DNA of 12,296 nt, from IMG/VR virus record IMGVR_UViG_2541047680_000005. The stretch is one strand, 5' to 3'. Below, piece by piece: positions 1 to 12,296 of the stretch. Origin of the DNA: a virus. Taxonomy: Duplodnaviria > Heunggongvirae > Uroviricota > Caudoviricetes. How positions within the stretch are numbered: position 1 is the stretch's first letter; each line of letters starts with the position of its first letter. The notes under the pieces were generated by a model, which saw only the letters and a list, made by a program, of their open reading frames with translations, ran no database searches and was not told the origin of the DNA. A program made the position numbers and the translations under genes.

Positions 1-1027
1 CGGTATTCCCTTTTCCTTCTGTGGCTGATTTCCGGTCATTATCCAGTGCGCAGGTGATTTTTGCCGCCGGGTACATGTTTACCAGTTGTTCCACAACATG
101 AACCATGTTGTTAGCGGATACAGCGACAACCACAGCGTCAAAGCGTTTATCTTTTTTCGTGGCAAGCCAGATGGATGCACCAGTAGCAAAACCTTCTGTA
201 ACAGCGATGTTTTGCGCCCCTTTTAGCTCACCGATAACAAAGCAGGCACCGACGAAATCGCCGCTGGTTACGGCGCTGGTCTGGTATTTTCCACCTTGTT
301 TGTCGATTCGCTGCCAACCCACAATACGACCATCGTAACGACCGTCCAGGTGAGCCAGAGGGATAGCCATATACGTGGTTGGCCCCCTGCTCCATTTTGC
401 GCTGTCGTGACTGGTCACGCGACGCACATCACACGAATTAAAAACGTCACGAATACCTTTTTTAATCGCATATGGCCACGAGCCGTCTTCTGCAGGAGCA
501 TGTTCCCACGCGCTGTGAAATGCCAGCCATCCCAGCAAACGTTCATGGTCCATTTGGTTGTTTTTCAGGTCATTAATTCGTTTTTGTTCTTCACGGCGAC
601 GACGTGCTTCGGCCTGACGTTCTATTCTTGCCCGTTCTTCTTCCGGTTGTGCGACCACGGTCGCATTATTCCGCTGTTGCTCACGGCGATATTCAGAAAA
701 CAGGAAGGAGAAACCGCTCCATGAGCCAGCATCGCTGCCTTTATGGACGAAGTTAATGAACGGATAATCAATCCCTTTGCTGTGTTCCAGCCGGGAGTAA
801 ATTTCTACGCGTCCTTTGAGGCTCTTCTCGAGAGCTTCTGGAGATGTTTTATTGTATGAAGAGTAACGCTCAACACCCCCGCGAGGGTTGAGTTGGATGT
901 TGTCGGAACAGGCAGGCCAGTTGATACCAGCCATCTGTGCCAGCTCGGTTAGTTCATCCCGTGCTGCTTCAATTAGCGAGAACGGATCGCTGCCAAAGCG
1001 ATCCGCATAGAAATCGTTTAATGTCAT
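1..1027 (-). CDS. Replication primase (Toprim / EGYATA-type, RepA-like or P4-alpha-like), N-terminal ~342 codons; the 3' end lies beyond the left window edge
   Basis: Hand translation of the minus strand from ATG at 1027..1025 (MTLNDFYADRFGSDPFSLIEAARDEL...) stays open to position 1. It is absent from the ORF track because no stop lies inside the window. Contains VTEGFATGASIW (EGYATA-like primase motif) and ITCALDNDRKS (DxD, Toprim-like). Track ORFs 105..338 and 296..724 on the plus strand are its antisense shadow. Confidence 0.7.
   Translation of the reverse strand, partial: MTLNDFYADRFGSDPFSLIEAARDELTELAQMAGINWPACSDNIQLNPRGGVERYSSYNKTSPEALEKSLKGRVEIYSRLEHSKGIDYPFINFVHKGSDAGSWSGFSFLFSEYRREQQRNNATVVAQPEEERARIERQAEARRRREEQKRINDLKNNQMDHERLLGWLAFHSAWEHAPAEDGSWPYAIKKGIRDVFNSCDVRRVTSHDSAKWSRGPTTYMAIPLAHLDGRYDGRIVGWQRIDKQGGKYQTSAVTSGDFVGACFVIGELKGAQNIAVTEGFATGASIWLATKKDKRFDAVVVAVSANNMVHVVEQLVNMYPAAKITCALDNDRKSATEGKGNT
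649..666. repeat. 18-bp palindrome copy 1 (GTGCGACCACGGTCGCAT), candidate ParB/SopB-type centromere site
   Basis: Core TGCGACC-AC-GGTCGCA read directly; lies inside the primase coding sequence, where it encodes ATVVAQ on the minus strand. Confidence 0.6.
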
Positions 1028-1272: not shown

Positions 1273-1869
1273 TCATCTACCCTCAACCATGAATGATTTG
1301 ATCGTTCCGACTATTTGGTGAACAAATTCAAGATCGCTTTTCCTGAAGATGGCGCGTTGTGAGTTTGTTCCATCCAGATAGTAATTTTCATCATCAAAAC
1401 GGGCCAGGCGCTGGATAGTGATATTTCCTGCAGTATCACGAACCAGAACATCCTCGCCGGGGACCAGTTCCAGCGCAGAATCGACCAGGAGAAAATCGCC
1501 TGGCTGATAGTTTCCCTGCGTAAGATTGCTGATAGTTAACGCATACACAGTATTGCGCTGGCTGATGAATGGCAGGAATCGCTCAGTATTTGGAACCTGT
1601 CCCGGCTTCCACTCTTCATCCGGCCCACTTTCAGTTGTGCCAATAACAGGAATGCGATCAGGGTCATATTCTGTCCCATATAGCACCCAATGCACTGGCT
1701 TGCGTAAGCACTTAGCCAGGGCAATACCTATCTCCAGTGACGGCATTACGTCGCCACGTTCTAAGTTTTGGACGCCTGCTATAGAGATATCGACAGCCTC
1801 AGCAACTTCTCGCAACGTCAGCTTCATCTCTAAACGGCGTGCTTTCAGTCGTTCGCCTCGTGTTTTCAT
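1273..1869 (-). CDS. CI-like prophage repressor (N-terminal HTH, C-terminal LexA/S24-like domain, probably non-cleavable)
   Basis: 198-aa ORF. N-terminus LTLREVAEAVDISIAGVQNLERG is a classic XRE-type HTH. C-terminus PGDFLLVD...GNITIQRL aligns by eye with the LexA / lambda CI S24 core, but Gln replaces the catalytic Lys and no Ala-Gly cleavage site is evident. Divergent from the cro-like gene with operators between. Confidence 0.85.
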   Translation of the reverse strand: MKTRGERLKARRLEMKLTLREVAEAVDISIAGVQNLERGDVMPSLEIGIALAKCLRKPVHWVLYGTEYDPDRIPVIGTTESGPDEEWKPGQVPNTERFLPFISQRNTVYALTISNLTQGNYQPGDFLLVDSALELVPGEDVLVRDTAGNITIQRLARFDDENYYLDGTNSQRAIFRKSDLEFVHQIVGTIKSFMVEGR

Positions 1870-2882: not shown

Positions 2883-3135
2883 ACAAGTTATGTTCAGGAA
2901 ACCGTCGAAGCCAGAATTAAGGTATTCGGGGGTAAGAAATGAATATGTTATCTGGTGTCCAACTTGTGGTTACAGGACACGACCAGATAGTAATAAGCAG
3001 TCTGTAATTGCCGATTGGTATTTATCAAATCAGCCAGGTAATAAGCATATAGAAAATCTTTGGATTAAGCGTTACTTGGAAATCAGAGAGGGTGCGACCG
3101 TGGTCGCACAAGAAAATGAAAATAACGCCATTTAA
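2815..3135 (+). CDS. Small Cys-rich (CxC...CxxC) putative zinc-ribbon protein
   Basis: Track ORF. Contains FCLC and CPTCGY. Start is uncertain: ATG 2815 overlaps the upstream gene by 68 nt, and the alternative ATG at 2890 lacks an SD and would drop the first Cys pair. The last 15 codons include one copy of the 18-bp palindrome. Confidence 0.4.
   Translation: MRRRSAVKSSNAIGQEVPFCLCKQVMFRKPSKPELRYSGVRNEYVIWCPTCGYRTRPDSNKQSVIADWYLSNQPGNKHIENLWIKRYLEIREGATVVAQENENNAI
3092..3109. repeat. 18-bp palindrome copy 2 (GTGCGACCGTGGTCGCAC)
   Basis: Perfect 8-bp arms with GT centre; at the 3' end of ORF 2815..3135, where it again encodes ATVVAQ. Confidence 0.6.
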
Positions 3136-3342: not shown

Positions 3343-3942
3343 GTGACTAATCAGATTATTTACGACAGGAAACGGTCTGATGTAATGATTGACCTTGAAA
3401 CAATGGGTACTAACACATGTGCTCCAATTGTTTCTATCGGGGCAGTGTTTTTTTCTCCAGAAAGTGAGGAATTAGGTCCTACTTTTTATGTACCAGTGAA
3501 TCTCAGAAGCTCGATGTTGAATGGTGGTGTCGCCGATGGTGATACCATTTTATGGTGGTTGAAACAGAGCAAGGAAGCCAGAGCCGCAATTTGTACTAAT
3601 GATGCCCTTGATATTAAGGATGCACTTTTTGAATTATCACACTTTATTACTTGCCATGCATGTAATTTAAAAAAATTGAAAGTATGGGGAAATGGAGCAA
3701 CGTTCGATAATGTGATTTTACGCGGTGCTTATGAGCGCGTTGGCTTAGCCTGTCCGTGGGAATATTTTAATGATCAGGATGTTCGAACAATCGTTAATCT
3801 TGGTCAGTTTATTGGTTTTAATCCTAAAAAAGATATGCCATTTGATGGCGAACGACACAATGCCCTGGCTGATGCTATTCATCAGGCTAAATATGTATCC
3901 GCAATTTTCTCCCGTCTTGTAAAAGGGCAAGGAGAATCGTAA
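3343..3942 (+). CDS. DEDDh-family 3'-5' exonuclease (DnaQ-like fold)
   Basis: GTG start with GAGGAG 8 nt upstream. Motifs: MIDLETMG (Exo I, D-x-E), a central Asp-containing segment, and HNALADAIH (Exo III, H-x4-D). Confidence 0.8.
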   Translation: MTNQIIYDRKRSDVMIDLETMGTNTCAPIVSIGAVFFSPESEELGPTFYVPVNLRSSMLNGGVADGDTILWWLKQSKEARAAICTNDALDIKDALFELSHFITCHACNLKKLKVWGNGATFDNVILRGAYERVGLACPWEYFNDQDVRTIVNLGQFIGFNPKKDMPFDGERHNALADAIHQAKYVSAIFSRLVKGQGES

Positions 3943-4361
3943 TGGCAAAGGCTTTTACACCAGAACAGAGGGAAGAACTGAATAAACAAATTGTGGAACT
4001 CGTGCGCCTGAATGGACGAGGAACGGTTAGACAACTTGCGGATGAAACTGGTATTAGCCGGTGTGCTGTTAGTCGTTTATCAAGAGAGCTTGCTGCCAGT
4101 GGTGATTTGTATATCTCTGGCTCCGGGATATTTCTGTCTGCACAAGCACGCAAGGACTGGCAAAACGCCCGTAAAAAACTATCAAGAGTAAAGCCGAAGA
4201 AATCGGTAGTGGTTGATCCAGACCTTATCTGGTCATTACCTGACGGAGAAATACGTCGTTACGACAGGCGCTTGAACATGATTTGTCACGATTGCCGGAA
4301 AAGTGAAGTTATGCAGCGTGTGCTGGCTTTTTATCAGGGAAATTTACAGGAGGTGGCGTAG
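3942..4361 (+). CDS. Putative helix-turn-helix DNA-binding protein
   Basis: ATG overlaps the upstream stop (TAATG). N-terminal TVRQLADETGISRCAVSRLSRELAASGDL is HTH-like. Confidence 0.65.
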   Translation: MAKAFTPEQREELNKQIVELVRLNGRGTVRQLADETGISRCAVSRLSRELAASGDLYISGSGIFLSAQARKDWQNARKKLSRVKPKKSVVVDPDLIWSLPDGEIRRYDRRLNMICHDCRKSEVMQRVLAFYQGNLQEVA

Positions 4362-5910: not shown

Positions 5911-5992
5911 AAATTGACCGTAAAGTTTGAGTTTTATCCTGTAATTTTATACAGTATAAAAAACCTTTTTTAGTTAAATGGTATGAGATTTA

Positions 5993-6196
5993 ATGTCTGA
6001 AGCAGCCGTATCAACTCTTGAACAACTCGATTCAAATTTGAGAGATATTGACGCCGTTCTGGATCTGGTTAGCGTCACCCTGGCTTCTCCAGAAGCCAGC
6101 CTACATATTGGTGAGGTTTCACGACTCATCAACATGTCGCGAGAGATTGCCCAGCATTGTCAGAAAACTATCGCTGTTGAGCGTTCACATCATTGA
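5993..6196 (+). CDS. Hypothetical small acidic protein (67 aa)
   Basis: Preceded by an AT-rich intergenic region with TTGACC at 5914..5919 and TATAAA-like hexamers at 5948..5961. Weak SD. Convergent with the antitoxin gene. Confidence 0.4.
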   Translation: MSEAAVSTLEQLDSNLRDIDAVLDLVSVTLASPEASLHIGEVSRLINMSREIAQHCQKTIAVERSHH

Positions 6197-6238
6197 TGCA
6201 CACCCCGCCCTTCTGGACGGGGTAGTAAAAGAGTCTAA

Positions 6239-6526
6239 TTAATAAACAGCGCGAATATCGATGGTTGCGCCGCAGGCATGAGCATATTTAGCCAAAGTTT
6301 TCATACTTGCCCCTAAAGGATTGCTTTCCAGGCGGCTGATGGCTGACGGTCGCAACCCCATTCGTTCAGCCAGAGCTGATTTCGTTAAACCTGCTCTTTC
6401 CCTCATTTCGTATAACATTTCGACCATCTCCAGCTCTTTGTCGGCCTCTTCATATCCTTTGACGGCTTCTGGAGTGTTGAGGAGTTTTTCTTTTACTTCG
6501 TTAAACGGGATGCCTTTCGCTTTCAT
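6239..6526 (-). CDS. HigA-like antitoxin (XRE-family HTH)
   Basis: 95 aa, with HTH segment LTKSALAERMGLRPSAISRLE. The start overlaps the toxin stop (ATGA at 6526) and the gene lies downstream of the toxin, the HigBA-type order. Confidence 0.8.
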   Translation of the reverse strand: MKAKGIPFNEVKEKLLNTPEAVKGYEEADKELEMVEMLYEMRERAGLTKSALAERMGLRPSAISRLESNPLGASMKTLAKYAHACGATIDIRAVY

Positions 6527-6837
6527 CAGTTCATCTCCTTCAGGCGAGTTCTGGCGATTTCGATAGCCTTCACCGGTGTTTTCTGTGTCTTTTTTACAAA
6601 TGCATGCAATAGATAAATTTCGTTACCAGTCGCGTAGGCGTACAGCGTTCTTGCGATGTTTTTATCCCCTACTCGTAGTTCAAAAAGCCCTCCACCTATT
6701 ACACGGCTATGGGGCATCTTCAGTTTGTTGCCTTCCTTCTCCAGTCGCTCAATTAATCTGGTCATGCGACCTCGCAAATCATCTGGTAGTTCAAGCAGTT
6801 CATCCAGTGCTGCAGGGTGGGTTATCACGTTAAACAT
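6526..6837 (-). CDS. RelE/ParE-superfamily toxin of the HigB / phage Gp49-like group
   Basis: 103 aa; size, toxin-first order and overall sequence resemble the Gp49-like (DUF891) killer proteins as I recall them; the family is named after phage N15 gp49. Confidence 0.75.
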   Translation of the reverse strand: MFNVITHPAALDELLELPDDLRGRMTRLIERLEKEGNKLKMPHSRVIGGGLFELRVGDKNIARTLYAYATGNEIYLLHAFVKKTQKTPVKAIEIARTRLKEMN

Positions 6838-7470: not shown

Positions 7471-7488
7471 GTGCGACCACGGTCGCAC
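7471..7488. repeat. 18-bp palindrome copy 3 (GTGCGACCACGGTCGCAC, arms extend to 10 bp)
   Basis: Begins 6 bp after the stop of gene 7238..7465, at the head of the structured noncoding region. Confidence 0.6.
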
Positions 7489-7684: not shown

Positions 7685-7698
7685 GCGATGCGCATCGC
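7685..7698. repeat. Perfect 14-bp palindrome GCGATGCGCATCGC
   Basis: Read directly; contains the ATG at 7688 that the ORF track uses as the methyltransferase start. Confidence 0.45.
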
Positions 7699-7732
7699 CG
7701 GGTTAGCTTACCCAGGCAAAAAAATAATAGCT

Positions 7733-8809
7733 ATGTTCAAAACCACTAATATTCATGGCGCGCAACTCGTTTGCGCAGATTCTCTGCAATTTATCAAAAC
7801 CATCCCTGATAACTCGGTCAATTTGATTGCAACAGACCCACCATACTTCGGCGTAAAGGCTAACGCATGGGATAACCAGTGGGATAGCGATGCTGACTTT
7901 TTGGGGTGGATTGATGAATTTTTGGCAGAATTTTGGCGGATATTGGCCCCTAATGGCAGCCTGTATATGTTTACCGGCTCTCGCCTTGCGTCAAAAATTG
8001 AATTATTAACTCGCGACCGTTTCAATGTTCTGAACCATATCATTTGGGCTAAACCCAGTGGTATGTGGCGCGGTTGTCATAAAGAAAGTTTAAGGGCTTA
8101 TTTTCCTGCCACTGAAAGAATATTATTTGCAGAGCATTACGGCGCGTCAGGTTATGCTAAAGGTCAGTCAGGTTATGCTTCAAAATGTGCAGATTTAAGA
8201 AAAAATATTTTTTCTCCACTAATTGATGCTTTTTCGCTGGCTCGCCGTCAGTTAGATATATCAGCCGCAGACATTAATTCAGCAACAGGAAAGCAGATGT
8301 GTTCGCACTGGTTTTCTTATTCGCAGTGGCGGCTTCCATCATTAAGTGATTTTAATAAACTATGCGAATTATTTCGCAGGAAGGCAGATTCACTCGGTGT
8401 CCCGTGTCCATATCCTTTTAATGTTGATTATTCAGAACATGAAAAGCGTTATAGCGATCTGAAATTGCGTTATGAGGAAGTAAAGAAGCAGTATGATGAT
8501 TTGAAGGCTCAGTATGAAAATTTGCGCCGCCCATTTCATGTTACTGCTGATGTACCTTATACCGATGTATGGGAGTTTCCTCCTGTGCAATATTATCCTG
8601 GCAAGCACCCATGTGAAAAACCTGCAGCGATGATGGAACATATTATAAAAAGTAGTTCCCGCTCCGGAGATATCGTTGCCGATTTCTTTATGGGATCAGG
8701 CTCTACTATTAAAGCCGCGCTGAAGTTAGGTCGTCAGGCAATCGGTATTGAGATTGAGGGTGAACGTTATCTTCAGACAGTTGATGAAGTGAAAAAGTTA
8801 TTTGAGTAA
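7733..8809 (+). CDS. Orphan beta-class DNA methyltransferase (N6-adenine or N4-cytosine)
   Basis: DPPY (motif IV) near the N-terminus in NLIATDPPYFG and FFMGSGST (motif I, AdoMet binding) near the C-terminus; this motif order defines the beta class. A coiled-coil-like insert (YSDLKLRYEEVKKQYDDLKAQYENLRR) lies between them. Start ATG 7733 chosen so DPPY sits ~35 aa from the N-terminus; the ATG at 7688 is possible. No restriction endonuclease partner is visible. Confidence 0.8.
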   Translation: MFKTTNIHGAQLVCADSLQFIKTIPDNSVNLIATDPPYFGVKANAWDNQWDSDADFLGWIDEFLAEFWRILAPNGSLYMFTGSRLASKIELLTRDRFNVLNHIIWAKPSGMWRGCHKESLRAYFPATERILFAEHYGASGYAKGQSGYASKCADLRKNIFSPLIDAFSLARRQLDISAADINSATGKQMCSHWFSYSQWRLPSLSDFNKLCELFRRKADSLGVPCPYPFNVDYSEHEKRYSDLKLRYEEVKKQYDDLKAQYENLRRPFHVTADVPYTDVWEFPPVQYYPGKHPCEKPAAMMEHIIKSSSRSGDIVADFFMGSGSTIKAALKLGRQAIGIEIEGERYLQTVDEVKKLFE

Positions 8810-8904: not shown

Positions 8905-9177
8905 ATGAAGATGGATGAACGATACAGCAGCGCATCTTATGGTAGTGCTGGTCTTACTGCGTTCTTTGCCAGCCTGTCATTGCAGGATTGGGGCTTCATT
9001 ATCGGTGTCGCGTTCAGCATTATCCTCGGTGTACTTACATACCGGCTCAATAAACGCGAGCAGATGAAGCGCACGAAGATATTGCAGGACATATTGGATA
9101 AAACTGATGCCAATAATATTTCCGCCACGGCGATGGTTATTGGTGAATTGGGAAAGAGAGCACCGAAGGAAATATGA
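8905..9177 (+). CDS. Class II (pinholin-like) holin with dual-start motif
   Basis: 90 aa. Begins MKMDERY (Met1-Lys2-Met3, the classic antiholin/holin dual start). Two hydrophobic segments, [12 protein letters not shown] and [18 protein letters not shown], then a charged C-terminal tail. SD GAGGT 7 nt upstream. Directly precedes a SAR endolysin and resembles phage 21 S21 as I recall it. Confidence 0.8.
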
Positions 9178-9674
9178 TGCAGTCATCATTACGCAAAGCT
9201 GTCGCAACAGCTATTGGTGGCGGGGCTATTGCCATAGCATCTGTGCTCATCTCTGGTCCGAGCGGCAACGATGGTCTGGAAGGTGTGAGACATAACCCCT
9301 ACAAAGACATCGTTGGTGTATGGACTGTATGTTACGGGCATACAGGAAAAGACATTATGCTCGGTAAAACGTATACCGAAGCAGAATGCAAAGCTCTCCT
9401 GAATAAAGACCTTGCTACTGTCGCCAGACAAATTAACCCGTACATCAAAGTCGATATACCGGAAACAACGCGTGGTGCTCTTTACTCGTTCGTTTACAAC
9501 GTGGGTGCAGGCAATTTCAGAACATCGACACTTCTTCGCAAAATCAACCAGGGCGATATCAAAGGTGCATGTGATCAACTACGTCGCTGGACATATGCTG
9601 GCGGTAAGCAATGGAAAGGGCTGATGACTCGCCGTGAGATTGAGCGTGAAGTCTGTTTGTGGGGGCAGCAATGA
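9174..9674 (+). CDS. SAR endolysin (T4-lysozyme-like, GH24)
   Basis: N-terminal Gly/Ala-rich weakly hydrophobic segment [20 protein letters not shown] (signal-arrest-release type). Catalytic E-x8-D-x5-T spacing in [17 protein letters not shown]. Start overlaps the holin stop. Confidence 0.9.
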
Positions 9675-10138
9675 GCAGAGTAACCGCAATTATCTCCGCA
9701 CTGGTTATCTGCATCATCGTCTGCCTGTCGTGGGCTGTTAATCATTACCGTGATAACGCCATCGCCTACAAAGAACAGCGTGATAAAAAAGTCAGTGAGC
9801 TGAAGCAGGCGACCGCCACCATCGCTGACATGCAGCAGCGTCAGCGTGATGTTGCTGCGCTCGATGCAAAATACACGAAGGAGTTGGCTGATGCGAAAGC
9901 TGAAAATGATGCTCTTCGGCGCAAGCTTGATAATGGTGGTCGGGTGCTCGTCAAAGGAAAATGCTCTGTGCCATCCTCAGCCGAAACCTCCAGCGCCTCC
10001 GGCATGGGCAATGATGCCACCGTCGAACTCTCTCCAGTTGCTGGACGAAACGTTCTCGGTATCCGGGACGGAATCATCAGAGACCAGACAGCACTGAGAA
10101 CGCTTCAGGAATACATCAAGACGCAATGCCCGAATTAA
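9671..10138 (+). CDS. Rz: Rz-like inner-membrane spanin
   Basis: ATG 9671 overlaps the endolysin stop, with GGGGG 5 nt upstream. N-terminal TM helix [18 protein letters not shown], then a coiled-coil-like periplasmic domain. Contains the Rz1 gene in the +1 frame. Confidence 0.85.
9891..10097 (+). CDS. Rz1: Rz1-like outer-membrane lipoprotein spanin, embedded in Rz
   Basis: [44 protein letters not shown]: lipobox VVGC and a Pro-rich mature region, closely resembling lambda Rz1 as I recall it (MLKLKMML...VVVGCTSK...PPPPPAW). AAGGAG 7 nt upstream of the ATG. Confidence 0.8.
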
Positions 10139-10179: not shown

Positions 10180-10491
10180 ATGAAAATTTATATTGCCGGG
10201 CCAATGACTGGATATGAGAACTTTAATCGTGACGCCTTTAATAAAGAGGCAGATCGTTTGTCACGACATGGTCACTCTGTCTTGAATCCAGCCACTTTGC
10301 CTAATGGTCTGACACAACGTGAATACATGGATATTTGCTTTGCAATGCTTCGTTGTGCTGATGCTATTTTGATGCTTCCTGGCTGGAAAGCGTCTGCTGG
10401 AGCAACTGCTGAGTATCATTACGCATACAAGATGGAGATGCCGGTATTCACTACGCTGAATTACCCGCCAGCTTGTTCCTCTGTAGCATAA
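10180..10491 (+). CDS. DUF4406-like protein (nucleoside 2-deoxyribosyltransferase-like fold)
   Basis: 103 aa beginning MKIYIAGPMTGYENFNRDAF, the N-terminal signature of this phage-associated family as I recall it. Function unknown. Confidence 0.6.
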   Translation: MKIYIAGPMTGYENFNRDAFNKEADRLSRHGHSVLNPATLPNGLTQREYMDICFAMLRCADAILMLPGWKASAGATAEYHYAYKMEMPVFTTLNYPPACSSVA

Positions 10492-10510
10492 AAATCTCTT
10501 TGTTTCTCGT

Positions 10511-10528
10511 GTGCGACCGTGGTCGCAC
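10511..10528. repeat. 18-bp palindrome copy 4 (GTGCGACCGTGGTCGCAC)
   Basis: 20 bp after the stop of the DUF4406-like gene. Confidence 0.6.
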
Positions 10529-10730
10529 ATTAAATACCGCGCTGCATCGTCGCCGTATTTCCGCATTAACCATGACCGTAGCCCGACGGGGAACTCCTCT
10601 GCGCGAGTGTGCGGAAATAATCAAAAACGATGCACACCGGGTTTTTACCGCGCTAATGATTCGCGGGTTTGTCCCTCATGCTCGCCAGTCCTGTGCGAGG
10701 GTGGAAGAAACAGGGCATGTATTCAGGAGC

Positions 10731-10748
10731 GTGCGACCGTGGTCGCAC
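10731..10748. repeat. 18-bp palindrome copy 5 (GTGCGACCGTGGTCGCAC)
   Basis: 24 bp upstream of the start codon of gene 10772..11632; with copy 4 it brackets a ~200-bp noncoding stretch. Confidence 0.6.
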
Positions 10749-10771
10749 GGTATCTTTGTCAGGAGGTTTTG

Positions 10772-11632
10772 ATGAAAGAGTTGCAAAAAATTAATTCAAT
10801 AATGGAAAGATTAAGTGCTCTTGAGCGTAAGCTGGACGATTGTGGAAAGCTGTGTGTTGAAAAGCAAAATGAGCTTTACCGGGAATTTTTTACAATCGTA
10901 AGTGAGCTGATGCCAATTGTTAATAACTGCCTGATGACATCCAGATTTTTTAATGTCGATGCTACTACATCCAGAAAATTTTCTGTGAAAATTCAAGAAA
11001 GAGTTTCTGGTAGTGTGACAAGAGAGATGGCTGAACAGTTGGTGGCAATGAGCAATAAAACAAAAAGAAAAAAGGCATTGCTTGTAACAGCAAATCAGCT
11101 TTCAGGGCGCGTTGACTTTCAGGTCAGACAGGGTGGGCGTGTACTGGTAAATGATGCGTTCGTTGGACGTAGCTTTAGTCCTTACTCGATAAAATATGAT
11201 GTTGATGCAGATGATCAGGATATCAGCATTTCCTGGAAATCTGAGACAGCAGGGATTGTATTAACAGCAGAGTTGTTGAGTGATGATAAAAATGATGTCC
11301 AGCATCATTTGGACGAAAAGAATCATATTTCTGAAATTTGTATGAAGCCACGCAGCGGAATGACTTTATTGTCACGCACTCTTGCTGCTGGCTTTTCTGC
11401 ACCGGAAAAACGTGTGCTTCTGGTAGTGCCTGAAGATGCAGATATTCGACCACTGAATGGCTGTGATGTTATTAGTGCAAAAACATTGCATACCCGCGTC
11501 ATTCCTGTACCGGATGTGGTCATTATTGATGATGTTGAGAAATGCAAGTCTGTTTCCTCAACTGCCACAATCAAGCGAATTTTACGTTGTAGCACGTCGG
11601 CTGTTGTATTCCGGAAGCAGTTACATAACTAA
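10772..11632 (+). CDS. Hypothetical protein (286 aa), candidate cargo gene
   Basis: Strong SD AGGAGG 5 nt before ATG 10772. The track ORF 10511..11632 starts at a GTG inside palindrome copy 4 and is rejected. N-terminal coiled-coil-like segment; no recognisable catalytic motif. The region looks more AT-rich than the rest of the window by eye. Confidence 0.7.
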   Translation: MKELQKINSIMERLSALERKLDDCGKLCVEKQNELYREFFTIVSELMPIVNNCLMTSRFFNVDATTSRKFSVKIQERVSGSVTREMAEQLVAMSNKTKRKKALLVTANQLSGRVDFQVRQGGRVLVNDAFVGRSFSPYSIKYDVDADDQDISISWKSETAGIVLTAELLSDDKNDVQHHLDEKNHISEICMKPRSGMTLLSRTLAAGFSAPEKRVLLVVPEDADIRPLNGCDVISAKTLHTRVIPVPDVVIIDDVEKCKSVSSTATIKRILRCSTSAVVFRKQLHN

Positions 11633-11755
11633 CAAGTTTTGTTTTGCAGAACATCCTCAACTAAAAGCTTATAGAAAGAGAGCCTGAGATATTTTTTCTG
11701 TCTCTCGTAGTTGTTTATTTTTCTCGAACAGGCTTACAACTTACAGGATATAAAC

Positions 11756-12205
11756 ATGCAAGAAGAAGCAAATAAAATTCTTGTTGATTTATTGAAGAAG
11801 GCCAGCGATGGAATTGATTCCGCCATTGCATTCAGTCAGGCTCAGATTCCGGATGTTGTTCATCAGTTGCTGGTATGGAATATGGTTGATAGCCTGATTA
11901 AAACATTAATAGCCATTTCAACAATCCCGCTGGTTTTCTGGTTTATGAAAAAACAGTACCAAAAAGTTGAAATTGGTATATTCGATAATGAAGGATGGTC
12001 ATGGGAGAAGGGAAAGCCTAAATACAAACCGACTATGATTTGGGAAAGTAACGGTGAGATTAGTTTTCTTATCTTACCATTAGCAGCAGTTTTTGTTCTG
12101 TGGGTAAGTTTTATTATTGCTGTAGTAACCAATATGACATGGTTAAAAATCTGGTTGGCACCTAAGTTATATCTAATCGAATACGCAGCATCACTAATTA
12201 AATAG
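11756..12205 (+). CDS. Hypothetical membrane protein (149 aa, two predicted TM helices)
   Basis: ATG 11756 with AGGA 7 nt upstream (track start 11711 is TTG). TM segments LIKTLIAISTIPLVFWFM and ISFLILPLAAVFVLWVSFIIAVV. Visibly AT-rich. Confidence 0.6.
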   Translation: MQEEANKILVDLLKKASDGIDSAIAFSQAQIPDVVHQLLVWNMVDSLIKTLIAISTIPLVFWFMKKQYQKVEIGIFDNEGWSWEKGKPKYKPTMIWESNGEISFLILPLAAVFVLWVSFIIAVVTNMTWLKIWLAPKLYLIEYAASLIK

Positions 12206-12249
12206 TCCATTACAAAAGCCATTCGCTACTGAGTGCTGATGAATCCCCT

Positions 12250-12271
12250 AATGATTTTGGTAAAAATCATT
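12250..12271. repeat. AT-rich palindrome AATGATTTT-GGTA-AAAATCATT
   Basis: 9-bp perfect arms read directly, 45 bp after the stop of the last gene. Confidence 0.45.
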
Positions 12272-12296
12272 AAGTTAAGGTAGATACACATCTTGT

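Follow-up and report, generated by a model that had tools for sequence, protein, structure and literature searches.

The 12,296-nucleotide stretch of viral DNA analysed here (IMG/VR record IMGVR_UViG_2541047680_000005, a member of the Caudoviricetes; hereafter the window) carries close to its right end two adjacent genes at positions 10772–12205, referred to as gene 1 and gene 2. Escherichia phage PhiR46_1 matches window positions 10500–12235 at 99.8% identity, and because the related records also carry N15 gene names and a Ravinvirus classification, the window is part of an N15-like (Ravinvirus) linear phage-plasmid of Escherichia coli. An initial annotation, made from the DNA letters, had placed the two genes in a moron position just after the lysis cassette and had proposed that they form a defence or superinfection-exclusion module. 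The position agrees with the gene order, in which the pair follows the holin, lysozyme, Rz and DUF4406 genes and lies ahead of the cohesive-end site (cos). The features of the locus itself are as follows.

10511–10528: putative N15-type SopB centromere site (inverted-repeat, or IR, palindrome)
10539–10725: pre-cos copy 1 (lambdoid), the left direct repeat of the cassette
10731–10748: second putative N15-type SopB centromere site, 23 bp upstream of gene 1, with a possible terminator-like hairpin
10772–11632, + strand: gene 1, a 286-aa soluble protein, phrog_2571
11633–11755, + strand: AT-rich spacer between genes 1 and 2, with a weak hairpin
11756–12205, + strand: gene 2, a 149-aa protein with two transmembrane helices, phrog_3054

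Evidence on the nature of these genes comes from a sibling phage-plasmid that lacks them. Plasmid pZ1323HEC0355-3 (NZ_CP148365, 45.9 kb) is 99.3% identical through lysozyme, Rz and DUF4406, after which it carries one IR and a single pre-cos copy and then proceeds directly to cos and the terminase gene, with genes 1 and 2 both absent. The single pre-cos copy is a hybrid, its left part matching copy 1 and its right part matching copy 2, and the empty site is exactly the product expected of recombination between direct repeats. In N15 the equivalent locus holds a different cargo, a Dcm-type methylase (gp58) and gp59, which answers the question of whether related phage-plasmids carry other genes here; gp59 was considered as a diverged homologue of gene 1 or gene 2 and rejected (BLASTP E ≥ 2). 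Partial losses also occur. In phage YDC107_1, an 833-bp deletion between 7-bp ACGCAGC repeats (window 11350–11356 and 12183–12189) leaves a 198-aa stump of gene 1 and removes gene 2, and truncated gene 1 is found in 7 of the 36 genomes that carry the gene, four in the YDC107_1 form and three with the first 353 bp only. An identical cassette is found in an integrated chromosomal lambdoid prophage, and also beside a different terminase. The pair thus shows what is expected of moron cargo, namely presence or absence among near-identical phages and a base composition unlike that of its neighbours. Judging from these comparisons, genes 1 and 2 are dispensable moron-type accessory cargo and not core genes, as had been proposed; the close sibling lacks both precisely, and the deletion variants are natural.

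The block is framed by repeated sequence of two kinds. Five GTGCGACCGTGGTCGCAC palindromes lie in the window (649–666, 3092–3109, 7471–7488, 10511–10528 and 10731–10748), where none is expected by chance; four are exact copies and one, at 649, is near-exact with a single mismatch. They fit the 18-bp form GTGCGACC-NN-GGTCGCAC of N15 IR1–IR4, and the window palindrome has exactly the sequence of N15 centromere sites IR1 and IR4, GTGCGACCACGGTCGCAC (PMC7205306, Table 4). The sole difference from F sopC (CTGGGACCACGGTCCCAC) is at position 4/4′, the position at which N15 SopB sites are reported to differ from F sopC (PMC2910045). N15 also has a SopB site at the equivalent position, just upstream of gp59, the last gene before cos. 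Because of this placement and the identity to IR1/IR4, the palindromes are best read as N15-type SopB partition sites and not as the ends of a cassette. The whole N15 genome has four such sites, against five in the 12.3-kb window, two of which bracket the duplicated pre-cos sequence. The sopAB genes themselves are located outside the window.

That duplicated sequence fills the interval between the last two palindromes. Positions 10539–10725 are 85–94% identical to the final 100–300 bp before cos in lambda-like phages, and PhiR46_1 (L001) has two pre-cos copies, at 6040–6226 and, after gene 2, at 7823–8010, with 86–98% identity. Since the pre-cos copy recurs after gene 2, the block of IR, gene 1 and gene 2 (∼1.78 kb in PhiR46_1) is flanked by direct repeats of ∼190 bp. 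In PhiR46_1, cos lies ∼360 bp and Nu1 ∼550 bp downstream of gene 2, and the cos sequence (...CTACG/GGGCGGAAGGCG...) is presumably colinear with lambda cos. The initial annotation had described a noncoding stretch bracketed by two palindrome copies; the copies at 10511 and 10731 are as described, while the stretch between them is duplicated lambdoid pre-cos sequence and not an anonymous spacer. Candidate open reading frames (ORFs) on both strands of this stretch were examined for a YlcI/YnfO-like or other known small protein and discarded, none having a Pfam match. A 66-codon + strand ORF (10571–10772) does run through pre-cos copy 1, with a TGA that overlaps the gene 1 ATG (TGATG); this frame may be open by chance, the DNA being duplicated and non-coding, or may belong to a small gene coupled to gene 1.

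SopB sites are also seen away from phage-plasmids. The lambdoid contig L007 has one (5960–5977) upstream of gene 1, with which it travels, and a degenerate copy lies upstream of gene 2 in a chromosomal prophage of TUM9803. A chromosomal prophage with identical spacing from DUF4406 to gene 1 suggests that SopB sites were carried there too. From the copies in L007 and in the TUM9803 prophage, partition sites would seem to pass between phage-plasmids and other lambdoid phages.

The base composition of the pair was said to be more AT-rich than the remainder of the window, and calculation bears this out, with 38.6% GC in 10772–12205 and 45.3% in the rest; only 0.4% of equal-sized windows have a GC content as low. 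Gene 2, at 36.2%, is the lowest of the 22 tabulated genes, although gene 1, at 40.5%, falls within the span of the other genes (39.8–52.7%). GC at third codon positions is 35% in both genes, compared with a mean of 43% and a minimum of 30.5% among the genes. The AT bias of the pair is real but modest, and gene 2 drives most of it.

Both genes are maintained as proteins. AGGAGG sits 7 nt 5′ of the gene 1 ATG, and the start ATGs of genes 1 and 2 are the same as in the homologues of each. The ratio dN/dS is 0.25 for gene 1 and 0.15–0.18 for gene 2, measured on homologues at dS 0.4–0.8, and the two are therefore under purifying selection. One might suppose instead that they are decaying or non-functional hitch-hiking ORFs without a role, given the frequent deletions and truncations described above, the IS10 inserted right after gene 2 in the window and the near absence of relatives of gene 1; yet the low dN/dS values, the intact frames with good ribosome-binding sites in many lineages, and gene 2 motifs that are invariant from Vibrio to Escherichia phages make this extremely unlikely.

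Family searches return little beyond the two PHROG profiles. The gene 1 product has no hydrophobic segment (maximum 19-residue Kyte-Doolittle score 1.15), and the gene 2 product has hydrophobic helices at about residues 47–63 and 105–121, in accord with the soluble 286-aa protein lacking a recognisable motif and the 149-aa protein with two transmembrane helices that had been described from their translations. Neither protein matched Pfam or NCBIfam, profile searches of both families against PDB sequences gave no match, and no literature was found under the accession numbers or PHROG ids of either gene. Against the PADLOC defence models gene 1 had no match and gene 2 had only a hydrophobic match at E = 0.049. 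The profiles phrog_2571 (residues 1–286 of the gene 1 protein, E = 6.7e-164) and phrog_3054 (residues 1–149 of the gene 2 protein, E = 8.1e-59) are the sole matches, and both are annotated ‘unknown function’, in keeping with the earlier statement that neither protein can be assigned to a known family. Structure prediction and structural search, which had been proposed as a check, were run on both proteins and likewise assigned no family, with low-confidence AlphaFold2 (AF2) models (predicted local distance difference test, pLDDT, 59 and 65).

Whether the genes form one system or two can be approached through their distribution. Both occur together in the window and in L023, L024 and L027; gene 1 stands alone, before Nu1, in L007; gene 2 stands alone at the cargo locus of TUM9803, joined directly to the IR site; and neither is present in pZ1323HEC0355-3. 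Obligate joint inheritance, as expected of a two-gene system, is thus not seen, since both single-gene states are natural, and the persistence of these states and of truncated gene 1 without gene 2 is likewise not what a toxin–antitoxin or toxin–immunity pair would show. Among 215 complete E. coli genomes with gene 2, 28 have both genes and ∼87% are without gene 1. A 99.9%-identical gene 1 can stand beside gene 2 alleles of only 90.4% identity, which indicates recombination between the two genes. Homology among the gene 2 contexts begins ∼15 bp before the ATG, which suggests that gene 2 moves as a bare ORF with its ribosome-binding site.

Expression bears on the same question. On the + strand, a consensus scan called no sigma-70-like promoter ahead of either gene; the one element that it flagged as terminator-like was the IR hairpin at 10731. 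Folding of the intergenic spacer is no better than that of shuffled sequence (z = −0.10), and no terminator or structured RNA was found there. Because no promoter of its own was detected, the pair is most likely read through from the late operon and not expressed in the lysogen; it would form the last part of the late lysis transcript, and we infer that this transcript runs on across cos into the terminase genes.

These observations weigh on the proposal of the initial annotation, in which gene 1 as a soluble effector or sensor and gene 2 as its membrane partner would form a prophage abortive-infection or exclusion system protecting the lysogen. Such a pair would account for the joint travel of the genes into different phage backgrounds, and it fits the moron position and low GC. 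However, the natural gene 1-only and gene 2-only states, the large majority of gene 2-positive E. coli genomes without gene 1, the exchange of gene 2 alleles beside a near-constant gene 1, the common occurrence of gene 2 in strictly virulent phages, the failure of the scan to find a promoter for lysogenic expression and the lack of any defence-system similarity for either protein in PADLOC, Pfam, NCBIfam or PDB all speak against it, and we regard it as decidedly improbable.

The gene 2 family is broad. Relatives number 488 in the protein collection, and are found in 178 phage records and 215 complete E. coli genomes. In P22-like and lambdoid prophages, homologues at 74–76% identity stand alone in the early PL operon, immediately past N/sieB and ahead of cIII, kil and the recombination genes. 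Less similar homologues occur singly in a Klebsiella siphophage and in an N4-like Salmonella phage. The phi92-like myophages carry a homologue as Phi92_gp220, and in a Vibrio myophage the homologue is a lone opposite-strand gene between tail-completion and head-closure genes. The family is thus a single gene in both temperate and virulent phages (the Vibrio, N4-like and phi92-like phages being virulent), conserved with invariant motifs from Vibrio to Escherichia phages. The ends of the family alignment are conserved, with an N-terminal motif GID..x..F.QA.LPDVV.QLL.W and a C-terminal motif W[LI].IW[IL]APK[IL][WY]L[IM]EYA, and the helices and the inter-helix loop are variable.

The distribution of charge in this family suggests an orientation in the membrane. 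Helix-flanking Lys/Arg residues lie in the inter-helix loop in 54 of the 56 family members examined, with mean Lys/Arg counts of 4.0 for the loop, 0.5 for the N flank and 0.9 for the C flank, and the N-tail is net acidic. Because Lys/Arg gather in the loop, the positive-inside rule predicts that the loop is most likely cytoplasmic and the conserved termini periplasmic. The AF2 model is a helical hairpin (pLDDT 65), for which a Foldseek search against BFVD returned uncharacterised family members only.

A two-helix layout of this kind resembles that of class II holins, and both genes come straight after the lysis cassette and point the same way. It could be argued, then, that they are lysis accessories co-expressed with S, R, Rz and Rz1, with gene 2 acting as a membrane protein in the role of holin, antiholin or lysis timer and gene 1 as a soluble helper. 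A Pfam scan of all 56 family members gave scattered transmembrane noise, in which two members weakly match Phage_holin_3_6 (E = 0.02). This phage already has a holin, endolysin and Rz/Rz1, and the same lysis genes are kept by phage-plasmids without the cassette. Most gene 2 homologues lie far from lysis genes, and those in the early PL operon of P22-like prophages would be expressed prematurely for a holin. Apart from its two helices, gene 2 therefore does not have the features of a holin, and a role for the pair as lysis accessories seems a poor prospect.

Gene 1 has a far narrower distribution. A word-indexed search of 5.8 billion proteins gave 15 matches, all from Escherichia and at ≥71% identity, and exhaustive HMMER searching of 1.84 billion representatives gave one full-length cluster, fragments and one match to the beta domain. 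The gene is present in 36 of 5,426 complete E. coli genomes. It is an orphan limited to Escherichia lambdoid and N15-like phages. The AF2 model (pLDDT 58.9) contains a coiled-coil hairpin (1–55), a beta domain (99–169) and an alpha/beta domain (199–280). The sole remote homologue of the central beta domain, P0145 (32% identity), is encoded in a lambdoid prophage between the Q and holin genes, after a 2.9-kb stretch without called genes (L021 2109–5001). In Stx phages this slot is occupied by stx and tRNA genes. P0145 was considered as a clue to the function of gene 1 and set aside, as its Q–holin context gave no functional hint.

The fold of gene 1 raises the idea that it is a late-expressed virion or assembly accessory, such as a decoration or binding protein, with gene 2 as unrelated cargo. 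Its late position adjoining cos and Nu1 and a model that combines a coiled coil with a beta-sandwich would suit such a role, and the Foldseek matches are to beta-sandwich proteins that include the FlgD hook cap, phage nozzle/fibre, phage central spike and carbohydrate-binding modules. These matches are all weak and generic (E ≥ 1.7e-3, TM ≤ 0.2) and come from a model of pLDDT 59. Moreover, the gene is absent or truncated in close relatives, and its beta-domain homologue does not lie in a structural module, so we consider a virion role very unlikely.

The explanation that we favour, with moderate confidence, is that genes 1 and 2 are independent, dispensable cargo of the late operon and that gene 2 is a stand-alone inner-membrane protein. 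The two accessory genes sit at the promoter-distal end of the lysis/late transcription unit, just before cos, and the block is gained or lost by homologous recombination between the pre-cos repeats or with other lambdoid phages. Each gene is also mobile by itself; gene 2 in particular turns up in many unrelated phages as little more than its reading frame and ribosome-binding site. Both would be read through from the lysis genes with the late operon, and not in the lysogen. Gene 2 most likely functions without a partner, as a hairpin in the inner membrane whose loop is cytoplasmic; the conserved helices at its two ends, an acidic one at the N terminus and an amphipathic one at the C terminus, would then face the periplasm. 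Gene 1 would be a young, lineage-specific soluble protein made of a coiled coil, a generic beta-sandwich and a small alpha/beta domain, and tied to gene 2 mainly by descent.

What gene 2 does in the membrane can be proposed only tentatively. It stands alone, is predicted to face the periplasm and occurs in virulent and temperate phages in early or late positions, which points to an envelope-level factor. Our best, low-confidence guess is that during lytic growth it works from the periplasmic side of the inner membrane, perhaps keeping out the genome of a superinfecting phage as T4 Imm or HK97 gp15 do; lysis modulation and counter-defence are alternatives. Another reading, which we hold to be unlikely, would make phrog_3054 a widespread controller of envelope events (superinfection exclusion, or the neutralising of membrane-based host defence) in temperate and virulent phages of Gammaproteobacteria, and gene 1 a recent Escherichia-specific partner that modifies or targets its activity.

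Several points weigh against our preferred explanation of two independent genes. All 28 full-length copies of gene 1 in complete E. coli genomes have gene 2 ∼124 bp downstream, which leaves room for a functional partnership. Common descent of a young orphan gene explains this linkage equally well, and the asymmetry of the linkage fits a young gene 1 that arose next to gene 2, without proving functional dependence. The consensus scan for promoters was crude, and a weak or non-sigma-70 promoter, and with it lysogenic expression, could have escaped it. The N-out/C-out topology of gene 2 derives only from the positive-inside rule, and would require translocation of a 46-residue N-tail without a signal peptide. 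The predicted structures of both proteins are of low confidence, and no homology, structural match or experiment is specific to superinfection exclusion.

Known systems offer partial parallels. The late-region morons of lambda-type phages (bor, lambda p78/p79 between Rz and cos, and lom in the tail region) resemble the pair in their variable presence among near-identical phages, a GC content below that of their neighbours and their dispensability, and the slot between Rz and cos is shared; in related E. coli prophages this cargo slot holds iss/bor. The pair has no sequence similarity to Bor, Lom or Iss. Classical morons, with a promoter and terminator to themselves, are active in the lysogen; for genes 1 and 2 we found no promoter, and they run in the same direction as the late operon. 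The N15 locus follows the same plan as the window, with Rz, DUF4406, cargo, a SopB IR site upstream of the last gene and then cos, but its cargo proteins, gp58 (a Dcm-type methyltransferase) and gp59, are unrelated to those of genes 1 and 2.

T4 Imm and the HK97 gp15 moron are single-gene inner-membrane superinfection-exclusion proteins. Like these, gene 2 is a small, stand-alone inner-membrane insert found in virulent and temperate phages, and its Vibrio myophage homologue, a lone opposite-strand gene inside a structural module, recalls HK97 gp15 in its placement. Unlike them in sequence and fold, as far as similarity can be detected, gene 2 has terminal motifs of its own. The prophage abortive-infection pair RexA/RexB, a soluble sensor and a membrane channel, is only superficially similar, in that a lambdoid phage encodes first a soluble and then a small membrane protein. 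Lysogens express RexAB from the immunity region, and the RexB protein contains four transmembrane helices. In contrast to RexAB, the pair is separable, lies in the late region and has no PADLOC match, and its membrane gene occurs in virulent phages.

The other features of the right part of the window are listed below.

7688–8809: DNA methylase gene
8905–9177: holin gene
9174–9674: lysozyme gene
9659–10138, + strand: Rz gene, with an embedded Rz1-like frame
10180–10491, + strand: DUF4406 gene (nucleoside 2-deoxyribosyltransferase-like; PF14359, E = 3.7e-34)
between DUF4406 and gene 1: stretch of ∼280 bp without an assigned gene
12237–12296, + strand: 60-bp end of an IS10/ISVsa5 element, outside the cassette

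DUF4406 is a constant anchor upstream of whatever cargo the variable site holds; N15 has it as gp57, and it is kept in the empty-site plasmid and in further carriers of the cassette. In N15 it overlaps the Dcm methylase gene, and in L023 (DUF4406 at 3630–4001) its stop overlaps the start of gene 1. It may have a functional tie to the cargo or may merely mark the edge of a recombination hotspot.

On the other side of the pair, the IS4-family element IS10/ISVsa5 is inserted 31 bp past the gene 2 stop, in a small hairpin. Window identity to PhiR46_1 stops at 12235–12236, and the tail at 12237–12296 matches many E. coli sites that adjoin an IS4-like ISVsa5 transposase gene; the insertion is absent from PhiR46_1 and the other relatives. 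With the element in place, the lysis genes and their cargo are separated from cos and the terminase genes; it may have a polar effect on late transcription, or it may be the sign of a larger transposon inserted here.

Elsewhere in the window, a + strand ORF (9846–10097) lies inside Rz in another frame and begins like a lipoprotein (...LIMVVGCSS...), as would suit a nested Rz1 o-spanin. The minus strand carries a RelE/ParE-family toxin gene (6526–6837) and a helix-turn-helix antitoxin gene (6239–6526), which correspond to N15 genes 49 and 48. Upstream of the CI-like repressor gene (1273–1869, minus strand), positions 1–1270 have no ORF longer than 142 aa, and GC at the far left exceeds 50%. No Rfam RNA family was found in the whole window.

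The region is ordinary moron-type cargo, and a paired defence module is not supported. The locus is a documented case of cargo turnover at the Rz–cos junction of lambdoid and N15-like phages, in which cargo is exchanged by recombination at a short conserved pre-cos sequence and the block is common to phage-plasmids and integrated prophages. Gene 1 is of interest mainly as a case of gene birth. The gene 2 family, with hundreds of phage proteins that have neither a Pfam family nor a solved structure, is the more useful lead and the only part that merits experimental follow-up.

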